This document shows, piece by piece, positions 34,818-43,192 of a stretch of 64,000 nt of DNA. The notes under the pieces are model-generated. The model was given only the letters and a program-made list of their open reading frames with translations, was not told the DNA's origin and did no database searches. Location of the stretch: NCBI GenBank assembly GCA_965645245.1, contig OZ287073.1, positions 1,488,001 through 1,552,000 on the forward strand. The letters run 5' to 3'. Position 1 is the first letter of the stretch; each line of letters starts with the position of its first letter. The DNA is from Massalongia carnosa (taxonomy: Eukaryota). The translations under genes were made by a program, and so were the position numbers.

Positions 34818-36911
34818 ATGGAAGTCTCACGGGGCCCTCCGCGGGTCAAAAACAAGCAAGCATCGCAGGTACAGATTTCTGCTGAGCAGCTTCTGCGTGA
34901 GGCAGTCGACCGACAAGAGCCAGGACTTCAAGCACCTACTCAGCGTTTTGCAGATCTTGAAGAACTTCATGAATTTCAAGGGAGGAAGCGGAAGGAATTT
35001 GAGGACTATGTACGAAGGAATCGCATCAACATGAACAATTGGATGCGCTATGCGCAGTGGGAGCTGGAACAGAAGGAGTTTCGAAGAGCAAGGTCGATTT
35101 TCGAGCGGGCATTAGATGTTGATTCAACATCAGTGGTGCTATGGATACGATATACCGAAGCAGAGATGAAGACACGGAATATAAACCATGCCAGAAATCT
35201 TCTAGATCGAGCTGTGACAATTCTTCCCCGAGTAGATAAGTTGTGGTATAAATACGTCTACATGGAGGAAACTTTGGGTAATATCCCCGGAACTCGACAA
35301 GTTTTTGAGCGATGGATGTCTTGGGAACCAGATGAAGCGGCTTGGAGCGCCTACATCAAGCTCGAAAAGCGGTATAATGAATTCTCCAGGGCAAGAGCTA
35401 TATTCGAGAGGTTTACGATTGTGCATCCGGAACCGAGGAACTGGATCAAGTGGGCGAGGTTTGAGGAAGAGAACGGAACGAGCGATCTAGTACGAGAGGT
35501 ATTTGGCATGGCTATCGAGACGCTCGGAGATAAGTTTACGGATGAGCGACTCTTCATCGCATACGCTCGGTACGAGGCAAAGCTGAAAGAATACGAGCGG
35601 GCAAGAGCAATTTTCAAGTATGCCCTAGATCGACTTCCTAGATCTAAAGCGATGATCCTGCATAAATCCTACACAACTTTTGAAAAGCAATTTGGCGACC
35701 GCGAAGGCGTAGAGGACGTTATATCGTCGAAAAGACGAGTTCAATACGAAGATCAAATCAAAGAAAATCCAAAGAATTATGATATATGGTTTGACTACGC
35801 ACGTCTTGAGGAAAGCTCGGGGGATGCGGACAGGGTGCGAGATATCTATGAACGAGCCATAGCCCAGATCCCGCCAACCCAGGAAAAGCGGCATTGGCGT
35901 AGATATATCTATCTTTGGATCTTTTACGCTCTATGGGAAGAGATGGACAACAAGGAGGTCGAGCGTGCTCGTCAAATATATGAAGAATGTCTCAAGCTGG
36001 TACCGCATAAGAAGTTCACATTCGGCAAAATCTGGCTAATGAAGGCACAATTTGAGGTACGAAAAATGCAACTGCAAGCAGCCAGGAAAACGCTGGGTTT
36101 AGCTATCGGCATATGTCCGAAGGATAAAATTTTCAAGGGCTATATCGAACTCGAGCTTAAGCTTTTCGAGTTTGTGAGGTGCCGCACTCTGTATGAAAAA
36201 CACATTGAGTGGAACCCTGCAAATTGCCAGGCGTGGATCAAGTTCGCGGAGCTGGAAAGAGGCTTGGACGACCTAGAGAGAACGAGAGCGATCTTAGAGC
36301 TGGCGGTTGATCAGCCGGTCCTAGACATGCCGGAGCTCCTTTGGAAAGCGTACATTGATTTTGAGGAGGAAGAAGGTGAGTATGAGCGGACTAGGAAGTT
36401 GTATGAGCGATTACTCGCCAAGACGGACCACGTCAAGGTCTGGATCAGCTATGCTCATTTCGAGATCAACGTCCCCGATGACGGCGAAGAGGAGGTGGAC
36501 GAGGAGCAAGAGGACAAGCCCATCAGCGAAGACGCTAAGCGGCGTGGCCGTAAAGTCTTCGAGCGGGCTTACAAGAGCATGAAGGAGAAAGATCTCAAGG
36601 AAGAAGTACGTCGCCCCACACCTCATTTCATCCCCCCGCGATTTGCTAACCATCTCTCTTATCAGCGAGTGGCCCTTCTAAACGCATGGAAGTCCTTTGA
36701 GAACACGCACGGCTCGGCCGAGGATCTGGAGAGCGTGGAGAAGCAGATGCCGCGGAAAGTCAAGAAGCGGAGGAAGCTCGACGACGACAGTTTCGAGGAG
36801 TATATGGATTACCTGTTCCCAGACGATGGGGAGTCGGCGGCAAAGAACTTGCGGTTTTTGCAGATGGCGCACCAGTGGAAGCAGAACGCTGGGGGGAACG
36901 GCCTTGTATAG
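34818..36911 (+). CDS. CLF1: Pre-mRNA splicing factor Clf1 / crooked neck (HAT repeats)
   Basis: [16 protein letters not shown]-terminus, many HAT repeats, [17 protein letters not shown]-terminus; 60-nt intron 36606-36665. Confidence 0.97.
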
Positions 36912-38101
36912 ATCTGGGGATGGGGATTGGAGCAGACTATGCTTGGTCTACCCAGTTTATTCGTGGTGCATTGAACAAGACGCATCGGCCATGTAGTCAT
37001 TACAATAGCCCCGGCTCTTCCATTCTCGAAAGATATCTCCCGCCCCCAAGACCCCACTCATTGATTTATTCATTCATCCACCCTACCCCCTAATTAATTT
37101 CCCAGAATCCAAACCCATTTCCCTCTCCGCTTTAGAGGAAGGGGATTTGAGGGTAGTGGTAAGGTTCTGAAAGGTTTGGGATGGATGAATGGATGAAGTG
37201 GAGGAGTCATATGAAGCTGGGATTTGGTTTGGCTCATCAAAGGGGGCAGAGCGGAGGATGCAGAGAGTAGAGAGAGAGTGTGAGAGAGACTCTTTTTTAC
37301 CATTCATTCATCCACTAACTCCCTCCATTCTCCCATTCCCGCTCACCAACTTACCAGAGAAGAGAAAAGGGGGGGAACCACCAAAAAACTAAACCATCAA
37401 AATAAAGAAACCCCCCCGAACAGGACGAGTGAAAACAGGGAGCAACTAGAAAAAGGCAACAGAAAATCTCCCTTGTGATATATAGTTAACATAGGTAAAA
37501 AGGAGGTTATCCTCGCTTTATCATTTATCCATTCAATATTTCCTTTTCTCGTTTCTTTTCTTTCAAAAACCAAACCCCCATAACTCAACTCATCAACCAA
37601 CCCCCACCTTACCCAACTACTTAACTACCTACTTACCTACCTTGACCACCTACCCAGCTACCCAGCTGAACCCCATCTCCCCTCCCCCGTCCACAAATCC
37701 ATCCGAACGTAGCCGCTCGCTCCATAAAACAAAGCGGGGAAATTATATATGTATGGGTAAAACAGGCAGAAAAAGAGGACTTGGACGGTCCTCGTCCTGG
37801 CCGGTTCTGTTATCGATTAGAGTGTTTGGCTTAGGGATCTTGAGGGGGAGTGGAGTGGGAGTGGGAGTGGAAGTTGAGGGAGTTGATGGGGTGTCACCTT
37901 GGGCTGGCTACCTTCGGTCACTAGAGAGAGGTTAGGGATTCAAATAGGGTTCGTGGTCTCTCATTACCGTGATTTCCTAGAATGCTTTCCGCACTCGAAT
38001 AAAGCTTGAGTTGGTACCAACGCCTAGGATCTTCTGTAGAATCAATCACCGAACATCCCCCTATCTGTCTTTTGCGACCGAACCCAAGCCATGACTGGAA
38101 C

Positions 38102-40128
38102 TCACTCCATCAGCCCATCTCCCGCTCCTTCCCCCTCATCCTCCTCCTCCTCCATCCCCTCCTCCCCCGCACTCTCCCGATCCTCCCTGAAAACCTGGCC
38201 CCCAATGCCCGCCTCCTTTAAACGCGCCTGCATCTCCTCACGCTTGGCCGCCTGCCAGCGCTCTAGAGCAGCAGCCGCATGCACACGAAATCCGAACACC
38301 TTAGGCTCGTAGCGACGGATCGTCTTCTCCGGGATGAGAGCTGGATAGACCTGGAAAAGGATGTTCTGGAACGAGGTGCCGAAGTAGGCACCGTCGATGT
38401 TGGCGTGGCGGCTGGACTTGGGGTTGTAAAGGTCTTCGCATTTGCCGCAGTAAAGTTTGACCGACTGCACGGCGGCAACGTCGGACATGCCGGTTGGGAG
38501 GAGGGGGTGCGCGGAACACATAACACGGGGACACTTGCCGAAATCGCCCTTTTTGTACTTTTCGAGCTAGAACATGTCAGTTGATTGTGATGATTACGAG
38601 GGATGAACTTGAAGCGAAAGCCGCAACTGACCATCTTAGCTAGACCCCGGGTAGTAGTGATGTAGCGTGCATGGACGAGGCCATAGAGGTGGCGAGCAGA
38701 CTTTTCGATTTGTTCGCGCATGTCATCATCGCAGTCCAGATCGAAGACGTCGGTGACGAGATCCAAAGCGTATTGATAGTATTGAACCTCGGTATTAAGA
38801 CCGGTCAGGTTAAAGCGATCGGTAAGATAGTCTTCGTCGATTTCGCAAAAGTACTCATTTCCTCGAGAGGAGATGAACTTGTATACCCAATCCAGCATTA
38901 GCATGTTGAAGTCTAGATGCGATCAAAATAGGCATGAAGGGATGCGGAAGAAGGTTAGACCGAAGAAGAAACAAAGGTGGAAAGGAAAGTAAAAGAAAAC
39001 GGGAAAATATGGCGCGACAAGAAGACGCAGGACAATAGTGTTGAAGAGGCTAAAGAGCGTTTTGCCTGATGATCGCGAAGTTCTCATAGGGGCATTCTTA
39101 TTTAGCAACAGCAGAACTCGGTGAAACCCGCTGCGACAACTCAAAGGCGGCGGATCGAATGACAACAGGATAGGCCCACGATATGGTTGATGCGATGACA
39201 TACATGGTACACCCAATAAAGAACACTTTCGGTATACATTGGTGTCGTATCCTCATGAAATTCGGAGTGAAACTTCATTGGAGGCTCGGGAGTACTCAAA
39301 TCTGACAATTGCTCGTCATTCTCCCCCTGGACTGAAGCAGGCCGCACACCCAAAATGCCACCTTGATGCTCCCGGTTCCATTGGGAATACGAATCCATTG
39401 GTAGAGATGGAGAGCGGCGATGACGGTCACGACGTTTCTTTTGCTGTGAGTATTCCTTGGCCAAGGATTGGTCATCATCCTTTTCTGATTCATTCCACTC
39501 ATACAAACGCCCGGGTCGACGGATATCTGTTGCGTAACTCGGTTCGGTATCAGGCGATGACATTGCTGAGCAGCTCGCTTCATTTGTGCTTGTATGATAC
39601 GGCTGAAGGCCTTTTTCTACTGAAGACACGGAAAAGACGGTTCCATAAGATGCTTCCTGCTTGGCGAGTTCTCGTGCAGCAGGATTTTCTAGGATAAACC
39701 TGGCCTGAGGAACTTGAAGGGACGAGGTCCGATATGATGGAGTTAGAGTTTTTCGATCCTGGCCTTCCCCTGCCTCTGGTTTTCTACCTACTGATCGTCC
39801 CTCAGCCAAAATGCAGCTTTTACGAAGCGCAGCTACCTCTCGTCTTGTTTTCATAGTATTGACCTGACCTTGGTTGCAGGATTTCACCATGAGAATTCTA
39901 TGCAGCTCTTAAGATATTGCCCATGGCGGTATCGGAAAGAATAACAAATCAACAACAATATATCGTCTGCGAAGGTGTTGTTTATGACGGGAAAGAACAA
40001 CAAACAAGTGGCAGAGGACAGCGATTATCGGATACAAACAGAGAAACACAGTTAGGAAAAGAACAACCTACCCAGTCTCTCCAATAGCTCGTATAGTCAC
40101 TATCGGTCTCGCTGTTGAAGTCTTCCAT
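38102..40128 (-). CDS. CKB2: Casein kinase II regulatory subunit beta
   Basis: Exons 40128-40072 (MEDFNSETDSDYTSYWRDW), 38877-38632 (FISSRGNEYFCEIDEDY..LYGLVHARYI), 38566-38102 (FGKCPRV.C..VKLYC.KC..IDGAYFG); ~1.2-kb first intron. Confidence 0.95.
39204..39563 (-). CDS. Candidate alternative first coding exon of CK2 beta (120 codons)
   Basis: Open frame inside intron 1, ending YWVYH at a GTATGT donor in phase 0, compatible with the FISSRG exon. Confidence 0.55.
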
Positions 40129-40562
40129 ATTGTTTACTGAGCCGATATTGAGGTTTCCATAAGGAAGAATGATCAAAATAGCTTGAGAGCCTGATAGGGC
40201 ATAGGCGTGGGCTGAGGGGCCAACGAATCAGTATTTCAACGTCCATTCGTTAAGAGAGCGCCGCTAATCTCTACCCGTTCTTCTGAGTTCACAGATGATC
40301 CGGCTTTAACTTTTTGTCAAGAGGTCCATCAAGTCAGGTCAAGCCTTCAGAAGGTTTAGAAAATCCTCTAGCAGAGATGTAAAGGTATTAAAGTACAAAA
40401 TATGTAGCCTTATCTCTCACATACTCTATAACTAGTCATATAACGAGTATTACAGGTATTGCATTGAAATATTAATACATACAGAGTAGAGTATACGTAT
40501 GATATAATACTAACTCAGATGGAACTTTTTGCTCATCTTGATGAGTGTTAAAAATGTAAAAA

Positions 40563-40680
40563 CATACAACAATCGGGATTCGCTGGTGGTCACCCACCCA
40601 ACTACTAATCGATCGATCTGAGTCTTCAGTACGGCAGAGCAGACGGGATACCCTGTTTACCTCAGTCTGTGGTCGTATGT
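40563..40680 (-). rRNA. Dispersed 5S rRNA gene
   Basis: ACATACGACCA...TTAGTAGTTGGGTGGGTGACCACCAGCGAATCC...GTTGTATG, 118 nt, followed by a T-run Pol III terminator; upstream TATA-like element; paired helices (CTGAG/CTCAG, GATCG/CGATT). Confidence 0.96.
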
Positions 40681-41179
40681 GATACAATAGTTCACAGTTA
40701 ATTATATATACTTATGTAAATTATTATTGTTCCTTATGATGGGTCTGGCACACACCGTTCTCAGCCCAAAACATTTCCTCCAGCCCGTGCGCCAACCATT
40801 GGCTTTGCTTCGCCAAAAACCCGATAATGCCAAGATGCTTGCGATGAGAAACAATCAATCACTACCCAAAGGGCAAGCGCCACAATGGTTAGCTGCTGTC
40901 ACGCAATTCTTGGGTAATGGTCTGATGGAAGGTTATCAGTGGCAAAAGTGTTTGGATGGGAGAAGAAGAAAAGATGCGCAAGAGGGAGCAAGAGCGTGAA
41001 AGAATAAAGCCAGCTTGTTGATCCCTTGCTTCTTAAGACTTGCTTTCATCAGCACTTCTCCCTCTTCAACTGTTCCTCTATCTACGATTAAAGTACTCTA
41101 CAATAGCAGCGAAACCTCGCGCCCCATCTCAACTTCAACCTCGCCCATAAATCTACTTCAATCTGAGAACTACTACTCA

Positions 41180-41581
41180 ATGCATCACTCCCTGCTCCCT
41201 TTCCTTCTCTTCCTCCTCTCCCTCCCCTCCGCAGCTCCAGTCTCCCTCCCCATGTTCTTCCTCCGCCAATCTTCCTCCCCTCACTCACAACCCCCTCCCG
41301 TCGTCTCAGCTCAAAAAAACCGTCTGGCCTCCATCCTCGCTCAAAGACCAATGCATACTACCGCCCTCCTCGCCGGCGCTGCGATGCCCTCACCACTACC
41401 TGTTGGATCGCATCCGCTGGCTGCCATTGTCGCTGTGGAGGATTGCGAGGATTGGGAGAATCAAGACCTGAGGGAGGAGTTTGAGGGTTTAAAGGAGGAG
41501 GTAGAGGTTGTGAGGGGCGAGATGGAAAGATTGAGGAAGGAGCATAAGGAGCTTGAGCATGGAGAGCAGGAGACGAGGTGA
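41180..41581 (+). CDS. Putative small secreted / coiled-coil hypothetical protein (may continue after a GTGAGT donor near 41578)
   Basis: Signal-like MHHSLLPFLLFLLSLPSAAP; heptad-like acidic segment LREEFEGLKEEVEVVRGEMERLRKEHKEL; no recognisable family. Confidence 0.4.
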   Translation: MHHSLLPFLLFLLSLPSAAPVSLPMFFLRQSSSPHSQPPPVVSAQKNRLASILAQRPMHTTALLAGAAMPSPLPVGSHPLAAIVAVEDCEDWENQDLREEFEGLKEEVEVVRGEMERLRKEHKELEHGEQETR

Positions 41582-43192
41582 GTTTCCATGGAACGGTAGT
41601 GAAGAACCGTTTTACAAGGCGCAATTCCTGACAAAGGACTCAGCTCAAGATTAGATTTGTGATGATGGAGACCCCACGATATACTAAAGGAACGGGGATA
41701 CTTGACAAAACTATTATTACAAGCGGAGAGTATCACCACTGAGCATAGGAGGATTCGCAGCATCAGGACGAGCTGTCTAATGCCACGTTTTACAAGGCCG
41801 ACTTCAATCAACTCTGAAAGCAGCGACTAGATGCCGCAAAAGGAGTCTACCTACCTTGGCAAATCCAAACCAACCCTAATCAGCCCGAATCTCGGGATTC
41901 AAATCGACGTCAATAGAGAAAGGCGCGCAGCCAATTAATATAACTATTATTTCCCCCCCCCCCTTTTTTTTTTCTCACCCAAACTCCTCGACAATTACCA
42001 AATGCAAATTTTTTTTAAACAAACAAATCCCCACACATCCCAAATCCACTAGCTCTTTCCACAAGAACAAGCAAACCCACCCTACTCACGCATATTGGGG
42101 TTTCCCTTCCCGCCGCCTCTCCCTTGTGGTATGTAGCTGATAAGCAGGTAGGTGATTGGTGGTTAACGGCAAATTCAAGATAACTCACCTTACTCCAGCA
42201 AACTAATGGAAAGAAAACACTCCCCTATCTATCTCTCTATTCTCGATATCAGCTTAAAAAACCCCCCTTCTCTCCAATCAATTATCATTCCTCGTGCTCT
42301 ATTTGGGATATCCCCACCTAACCCAACCCCTTTCCCCCATAAAACTCAGTTAGGGATAGGATAGGTAAGTAAGTAGGTACCTATGTAGGTAATAAAACCT
42401 AGATATATATATAGTTACACCATGCAGAGAAAAAAAAAACCTTCGAAATAGATACCTAGAGTCGTTTCGTACTATGTAAATACCGTAGGTATGGGTATAA
42501 CCCAAACCCTCCTTTCCCCCTATTTCCCTCTTCTCTTCCCGCTTTCCATAAACTTACATCATGTACCACTAACCCACCCCCTGACCCATATATACGTGTT
42601 CCATTACACAATAACAACCACAACGACAACAGTCAAGAAAGGAACTTCCATGTGCAGGAGTCCAAACTATCTATGGTTTTACCAGAGGATGAGAAATTGA
42701 TAATGATGTTTTGTCGGAGATAGGATGGGAAGGGCTGAGGATGTGGGGTTTTTGAAGTGGAAGGAGAAGGGAGGAGAAGGGGAAGGAGGGGGGTGGAAGC
42801 AAAGTAGGGGGAGAGGGAAGAAGAGAATGAATATTCATGAATGACTCAAAAATCTCATGCATCCCCTCAAACCTCCGTCCTAGTCAGCCTATATATTTCC
42901 TACCTCAATTGTGAACATCTCACCGCATCCTTTCCTTTTCTTCTCATTACCTGTCGAGACGAAAAGAAAGAAAGAACAAAGGGTTGAAACACCTTGCATA
43001 CCTGCTTAAGTTTGGGGGGGAAAGCGATAAACCCCAAAGAAAAAGATTTTGTTCGGGGATATATGCCCCTGACTATCTAAGTGGTTGATCCCAACTACCT
43101 GCAATCTTGAGATGTATGGATGCATGTTCTCAACTTCCCCGCATCCCTGCCCTCCCCGTCAAAACCGCAAACGGCGGGAAAACCACCTCAGT

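Follow-up and report, generated by a model that had tools for sequence, protein, structure and literature searches.

An open reading frame in the first intron of the CK2-beta gene

What does an open frame of 255 codons do inside an intron? The question is raised by a 64,000-nucleotide stretch of Massalongia carnosa DNA (contig OZ287073.1 of assembly GCA_965645245.1, positions 1,488,001 to 1,552,000; here called the window), in which the gene for the regulatory (beta) subunit of the kinase CK2 lies on the minus strand in three exons. All features described here are on that strand unless stated otherwise. The first intron of the gene (38878..40071, acceptor AG at 38879-38878) measures 1194 nt, and an open frame of the same strand runs within it from stop to stop (39141..39908), with its first ATG at 39890 and its stop codon TGA at 39143-39141. 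From ATG 39890 the frame holds 249 codons to the stop and 229 to a GTATGT donor (39198..39203). A first-pass annotation of the window had read this frame as a hidden N-terminal exon of CK2-beta. Our analysis points to a frame that is, or recently was, translated coding sequence, which its conservation makes highly probable. The most likely reading of it, with a probability of roughly 0.4, is an alternative first coding exon that would give a CK2-beta isoform of 453 aa.

The frame has a start codon of its own, stays open and reaches a consensus donor whose phase is that of exon 2. The last codon before the donor is CAT (39206-39204), followed directly by GTATGT in phase 0, as at the end of exon 1, and the predicted junction ..LYWVYH|FISSRGNEY (the bar marks the splice) has the same spacing as the canonical ..SYWRDW|FISS. 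The proposed alternative first coding exon (39204..39854) comprises 217 codons. It begins at ATG 39854, which relatives of the frame share and which has A at -3, and its last codon is the CAT in front of the donor. Another donor-like hexamer, GTAGGT at 39791, also lies in phase 0 within the frame, 21 codons past ATG 39854. The first-pass annotation had given the intron as about 1.2 kb, the frame as 249 codons and the donor as in phase to join FISSRGNEY with canonical spacing, all of which our measurements reproduced; its statement that the other introns are of about 50-180 nt holds for intron 2 (65 nt), the only other intron checked.

Relatives of the intron frame

Word-index searches with the single peptide, at near and longer lengths, returned only the window's own frame. 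An exhaustive HMMER search covering 1.84 billion representatives gave four hits (P0002-P0005), namely the window's own frame (P0002), two relatives (P0003, E 1.6e-7, and P0005, E 3.6e-6) and a sea slug tandem-repeat protein matched in six stretches (P0004, E 4e-7), which was dismissed. A profile search returned 10 proteins from 3078 candidates, of which eight were new (P0009-P0016, E 1.6e-100 to 1.9e-44) and the rest were P0002 and P0003, the latter already belonging to the profile query; this search was not exhaustive, as P0005, part of the query alignment, was not returned. The relatives are unnamed open reading frame (ORF) calls from Logan or ENA assemblies, without any Pfam domain. Matched back to the window, all 11 found it solely at 39162-39956 and in the intron frame, with E values of 1e-9 to 2e-19.

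An alignment was built from the window's frame and the 11 relatives; P0002, P0006 and P0008 were left out as duplicates or near-duplicates of included rows. Six lineages were defined by pairwise identity: the window's own frame, A (P0003, P0009), B (P0015), C (P0005, P0007, P0010, P0012), D (P0011, P0013, P0014) and E (P0016). Identity is 23-33% between the window's frame and the relatives, and 48-65% among the relatives' lineages. The 12 sequences share 16 invariant and 21 nearly invariant columns, clustered in a colinear core (about 39291-39632) with three motif areas: HTS followed by acidic residues; Y-A..R; and W-N-(D/E)-S, behind which come an acidic stretch and R-x-SPS. In 11-12 of the 12 sequences an acidic residue stands at +3 from two neighbouring Thr/Ser columns and from one Ser column, an arrangement that is the textbook CK2 consensus. 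The start Met is common to the family, residue 1 of P0009 falling on ATG 39854 and the window's M-K-T-R.. aligning with the Met of P0007 at 4 standard deviations above shuffles. The N-terminal third of the frame aligns poorly among the 12 sequences.

Because the 11 relatives share the core and the start Met and map only to this locus and frame, we regard the frame as very probably real coding sequence, a member of a small, unannotated family in related fungi. Conservation of the frame, one of the points on which the first-pass annotation had let its own proposal depend, was found in assemblies other than the one analysed. The same comparison bears on the possibility that the frame opened by chance in a long intron and never coded for protein. 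Frames this long do turn up occasionally, and some are to be expected when very many windows are scanned: in 20,000 dinucleotide-preserving shuffles of intron 1, with same-strand frames counted, a frame of at least 255 codons appeared in 6 and one of at least 235 codons in 15, and the frame ranks tied 11th-12th among the 42 stop-to-stop frames of at least 150 codons in the window. Its codon-usage score is also unremarkable (0.072 in frame, the best of the six frames; training frames, -0.075 to 0.151). A chance frame would, however, have to account for eleven relatives that map to this frame only and have in common a colinear core, the start Met and invariant columns of Trp, Ser and acidic residues, and we consider it extremely improbable and, in our reading, already refuted by the homologues.

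The divergence within the family fits a further explanation, that of a functional exon or gene in an ancestor which is now unexpressed or unneeded and still open since too little time has passed. Evolution of the frame has been very fast, as the identity values indicate; mutations that break the tail have been tolerated in at least two lineages, the N-terminal third is poorly aligned, the G+C content at third codon positions (GC3) of 0.42 is below that of the host exons (0.56 in exon 2, 0.73 in exon 3), and two isolates differ by one residue. At 23-33% identity, however, 650 nt free of constraint should have gained stops or frameshifts, yet 255 codons are open, a length reached in only the 6 shuffles given above, and the invariant core motifs are intact in this genome. 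We regard a relic as an improbable explanation.

The difference between isolates is an L/V exchange near 39290 (..EQ-L/V-SDLS..) between P0002 on one side and P0006 and the window on the other, which come from two assemblies of seemingly the same species and show a non-synonymous polymorphism. The only locus from a metagenome scan was rejected as spurious: it shows 17/41 identities around the pattern that seeded it, its frame is interrupted by a stop, its G+C content is 65%, and it lacks CK2-beta exons. A profile scan of prokaryote genome contigs gave no match, and the ESM Atlas, queried with P0003, gave no usable match.

Predicted product

The product of the frame is predicted to be largely disordered. 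AlphaFold2, run with the 12-row alignment, gave a mean predicted local distance difference test score (pLDDT) of 50.5 and a predicted template modelling score (pTM) of 0.19, and no Pfam family scored above its cut-off. Only one helix, formed by residues 225-244 of the stop-to-stop frame (mean pLDDT of 86 for residues 231-240), is predicted with confidence, and it spans the donor. The disordered N-terminus proposed in the first-pass annotation is therefore matched by the prediction, except for this helix at the junction.

The two peptides quoted there, SYATDIRRPGRLYEW and KKRRDRHRR, are present in the translation. The second, put forward as a basic feature of the exon, is not conserved; the relatives have R-R-P-x-S-P-S in its place. 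The window's peptide contains 12% Ser, 10% Glu and 9% Arg, and its S/T-x-x-D/E sites number 6, against a mean of 5.9 in shuffles, which is no enrichment. Among these sites, judging from the alignment, the invariant positions alone carry weight.

Joining of the frame to CK2-beta

Several observations are consistent with splicing of the frame to exon 2. A Trp occupies position -4 from the junction in the window's frame, P0003, P0009 and P0011, the place held in human CK2-beta by W9. The V-C codons, which are the reading of GTATGT, recur at this position in P0003, P0009 and P0015 and can be deduced for P0011. The tail of the frame is predicted to be helical, like the start of the CK2-beta fold.

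Other observations weigh against an alternative first exon. The frame stays open and in phase to a donor-like GTNTGY in only 4 of the 12 sequences (the window's own, P0003, P0009 and P0015). In P0011 the tail behind a Gln fits the +1 frame of V-C-H-(R/H)-I in 6 of 8 residues, a fit reached in 39-126 of 2000 shuffles, which suggests a shift of one base at the donor. P0013 and P0014 have tails that correspond to the +1 frame of P0011-like DNA in 11 of 12 residues (0/2000 shuffles), suggesting that the frame shifted about 20 codons upstream and then met a stop. All four members of lineage C stop about 20 codons short, at one shared column, and P0016 ends about 60 codons short, at a stop or at the end of its contig. 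Since the relatives are gene-caller ORFs, copies with a broken frame are invisible, so that the family suffers from an ascertainment bias; the relatives are presumed to lie in CK2-beta introns. Codon usage does not discriminate.

Constraint and conservation around the donor point the same way. Changes in lineage C avoid the columns conserved elsewhere (4/56 vs 23/90, Fisher p 0.0076), and the lineage has lost 4 and 8 residues in two deletions that both keep the frame. The core of lineage C thus appears constrained although truncated, suggesting a role of the core without fusion. No such avoidance was seen in lineage D (8/54 vs 15/92) or lineage A (9/59 vs 16/83). Behind the donor, a block of 15 nt (39183..39197) reads HRINH. 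Together with the donor it forms the best-conserved stretch between the window's frame and lineage A (VCHRI.H), with alignments continuing to 39162; the 15 nt are nearly unchanged in lineage A and partly kept in P0015 and P0011. This conservation would fit a translated, unspliced tail better than an intron, and would be unexplained if the stretch were only intron.

Protein searches added a negative result to these points. No fused protein was found among 1396 longer candidates or in the exhaustive search of all lengths, nor in the profile search at 104-447 aa, a range covering the 411-443 aa expected for fusions of P0003, P0009 and P0015. This absence is weak evidence, as the clade may have no RNA data or annotation.

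These observations would also fit a stand-alone gene nested in the intron. A separate promoter in the 5' part of intron 1 would drive it, and translation between ATG 39854 and the stop at 39141 would yield a protein of 237 aa that is never joined to CK2-beta, whose transcripts would splice over the frame. Its product would be disordered and phosphorylatable, possibly a CK2 substrate or regulator encoded at the locus of the regulatory subunit. For such a gene the frame offers a conserved start Met of its own and, 20 codons past the donor, a stop. It would account for C-terminal ends that vary, with the tail lost in 7-8 of the 12 members while the core stays colinear, for the constrained core and in-frame deletions of the truncated lineage C, for VCHRI.H being conserved as if translated, for the predicted helix that crosses the donor, and for the lack of a fused protein in the searches. 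A stretch with 63% C+T lies upstream of the frame (39891-40071), and an AATAAG lies about 35 nt past its stop. On the other side, to our knowledge same-strand genes nested in introns are rare in filamentous fungi, and a literature search on the point gave nothing relevant. A nested gene would also have to put down to chance the phase of the consensus donor, the CK2-beta-like Trp at -4 and the likeness of the frame's end to the intron tail before exon 2 (13/18 nt), and the avoidance of conserved columns is missing from lineages D and A. On balance we consider a nested gene a serious candidate, somewhat less likely than the alternative first exon.

The second CK2-beta isoform of the first-pass annotation is favoured by the conserved frame, the in-phase donor and the W9-like Trp, and disfavoured by the small share of sequences open in phase and by the missing fused protein. 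The proposed fusion is thus only half supported, and these sequences speak against a fusion role general across the family.

Proposed mechanism

In the alternative first exon that we favour, transcription would start inside intron 1, upstream of ATG 39854, from which translation would begin. Splicing would run from the donor at 39203 to the acceptor at 38878, with the branch site and acceptor that exon 1 uses as well, and the resulting product of 453 aa would carry 217 disordered residues in place of the acidic N-terminus of 19 residues. The replacing residues would bear the invariant CK2-type S/T-x-x-D/E sites, and the CK2-beta fold would remain intact because the junction ..LYWVYH|FISS.. retains the Trp equivalent to human W9. 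By analogy with plant CK2-beta, the extension may be auto-phosphorylated and could tune the activity, stability or location of the holoenzyme. Where the donor is left unused, the same mRNA would give a stand-alone protein of 237 aa.

A wider proposal is that of an unannotated family of disordered proteins with CK2 sites, located in CK2-beta intron 1 of a fungal clade and switching between two states, which seems to us rather improbable. In some lineages a stop or a frameshift would cut the frame loose, and the product would act in trans. If so, one polypeptide would modulate the kinase in cis or in trans, and the locus would record a natural gene fusion and fission; an exon-1-like relic directly before exon 2 would be a trace of the way in which this arrangement came about. 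A mixed reading, with spliced and unspliced products of one mRNA and with fusion or fission depending on the lineage, fits all data. The likelihood left over by the alternative exon and its rivals goes to mixed or regulatory readings.

The intron tail and other features of intron 1

The last 45 nt of intron 1 (38878..38922) are open and in frame with exon 2, and read SHLDFNMLMLDWVYK|FISS, ending in ..L-D-F-N-M-L-M-L-D-W-V-Y-K|FISS; two ATGs (38904 and 38898) and a branch-like CTAAT (38901-38897) lie within them. HMMER extends the alignment with human CK2-beta into this tail, placing L-D-W-V-Y-K over V-S-W-I-S-W (human residues 7-12). The tail has an 11-mer in common with exon 1, exact and in equal codon phase (D-F-N); 74 of 2000 shuffles reach a local score of at least 11. 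Over its final 18 nt the tail agrees in register with the last 18 nt of the alternative exon at 13 positions, equalled by 6 of 127,966 other 18-mers of the window. A free local alignment of both junction regions was, however, unremarkable, with 54 of 6394 window segments scoring as high. The tail may represent what is left of an N-terminus that formerly ran on into exon 2, or a third possible start; the evidence for both is suggestive only. An origin of the alternative exon end as a DNA duplicate of exon 1 was rejected, the score being matched by 138 of 500 and, separately, by 1241 of 2000 shuffles.

Between the stop of the frame and the intron tail lies a pyrimidine tract of 136 nt (38925..39060) with 78.7% C+T, which is longer than a usual polypyrimidine tract. 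Long pyrimidine tracts are known from core promoters of filamentous fungi.

An antisense frame of 168 codons (39191-39694, plus strand) overlies the conserved core. It was rejected as a gene, with no family match and a codon score below that of the sense frame, and is most likely a shadow of the latter. A hairpin around the donor was also rejected (z = +1.26; 179/200 shuffles fold at least as well), and a frameshifted ancestral start, an upstream frame of 8 codons from ATG 39924, was dropped at only about 2 standard deviations above shuffles. For a transposon or introner origin of the intron there was no Pfam match above cut-off, only chance-like short repeats, and no second copy in the window.

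The host gene and its surroundings

The host gene is an ordinary CK2-beta. Exon 1 (40072..40128) has 19 codons, translated as MEDFNSETDSDYTSYWRDW, ends in ..SYWRDW and is followed by the donor GTAGGT. Exon 2 (38632..38877) has 82 codons and begins with FISSRGNEY, intron 2 (38567..38631) has 65 nt, and exon 3 (38102..38566) has 154 codons and the stop. The products of exons 2 and 3 match Pfam PF01214 (CK_II_beta, cut-off 27) with 88.9 bits at profile positions 6-88 and 124.5 bits at positions 90-182, respectively, and align with solved human CK2-beta chains (1qf8, 1jwh and others; HMMER, E 1.5e-26). In this alignment the first residue of exon 2 corresponds to human F13, which fixes the start of the exon.

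A complete 5S rRNA gene (40561-40680) was found on the same strand, about 430 nt upstream of the CK2-beta start codon (Rfam RF00001, 63.2 bits, gathering score 38, model positions 1-120), as a dispersed 5S copy in the presumed CK2-beta promoter region; a scan of 36000-43000 against Rfam gave no other match.

The region was also compared with genomic contigs of four sequencing runs, which contain no splice joints, and a search for RNA runs covering 37900-40400 returned none; both results are neutral as to splicing. The acidic, Glu/Gly-rich C-terminal tail of CK2-beta (38118-38170) is low-complexity DNA that draws many unrelated contigs in all four runs, which explains a depth spike and loose ends there. 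One run, which carries the label of another organism and comes from a second study (run X4), contains short low-depth contigs identical to 38318-40393, with 0 other letters, suggesting that its sample holds the same fungus.

Comparison with known systems

The kinase CK2 is essential and constitutively active, and little is understood of its regulation. One of the few control points known is the N-terminus of CK2-beta, which acts by auto-phosphorylation and, in plants, by way of a dedicated N-terminal domain. The hidden frame would add to this a long second CK2-beta isoform, or a new small protein genetically tied to CK2-beta, and it suggests that long fungal introns merit checking for conserved frames.

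Alternative first exons or promoters are a general mechanism for N-terminal protein isoforms. The M. carnosa locus resembles them in having a second start codon and an in-phase donor in the first intron, with a shared exon 2 acceptor, and differs in that splicing and transcription start are putative here and that about half of the related sequences could not fuse. With the N-terminal helix of animal CK2-beta (1qf8, 1jwh) the likeness lies in the residues before the exon 2 boundary, which align with human residues 7-12 (VSWISW) with Trp at W9, whereas the alternative exon has His at the W12 position and would replace the acidic, auto-phosphorylated extreme N-terminus.

Plant CK2-beta carries an N-terminal extension of about 90 aa, made of short motifs with autophosphorylation sites, which lowers holoenzyme activity and stabilises the subunit (PMC3137599). 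Both systems place a long extension before the conserved fold, without similarity to known domains and with short conserved motifs bearing CK2-type sites; the predicted product of the intron frame shares this trait in its disorder and its short conserved motifs, CK2 consensus sites included. The plant extension, however, is constitutive and of about 90 aa, whereas the proposed fungal one would be an optional isoform with 217 residues encoded by an exon hidden in intron 1; the normal N-terminus would here be replaced rather than added to, and the fusion seems not to be conserved across the fungal family. No sequence relation between the frame and the plant extension is expected, and the likeness would be one of function, not of descent.

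Chimeric and intron-retaining CSNK2B-LY6G5B transcripts are described for mammals (PMC3626593). They likewise show that transcripts of a CK2-beta locus can carry coding sequence besides the canonical protein; they arise, in contrast, by 3' read-through into a downstream neighbour and not from a 5' exon in intron 1, and involve unrelated sequence.

No report of an alternative first exon, or of an intron-nested gene, in a fungal CK2-beta was found in the literature, and the named protein records reached by our searches included no conserved coding frame of a fungal CK2-beta intron 1. Alternative first exons and the N-terminal extensions of plant CK2-beta are thus the known kinds to which this locus can be compared, and what it adds to them is a conserved coding frame in the first intron of a fungal CK2-beta gene.

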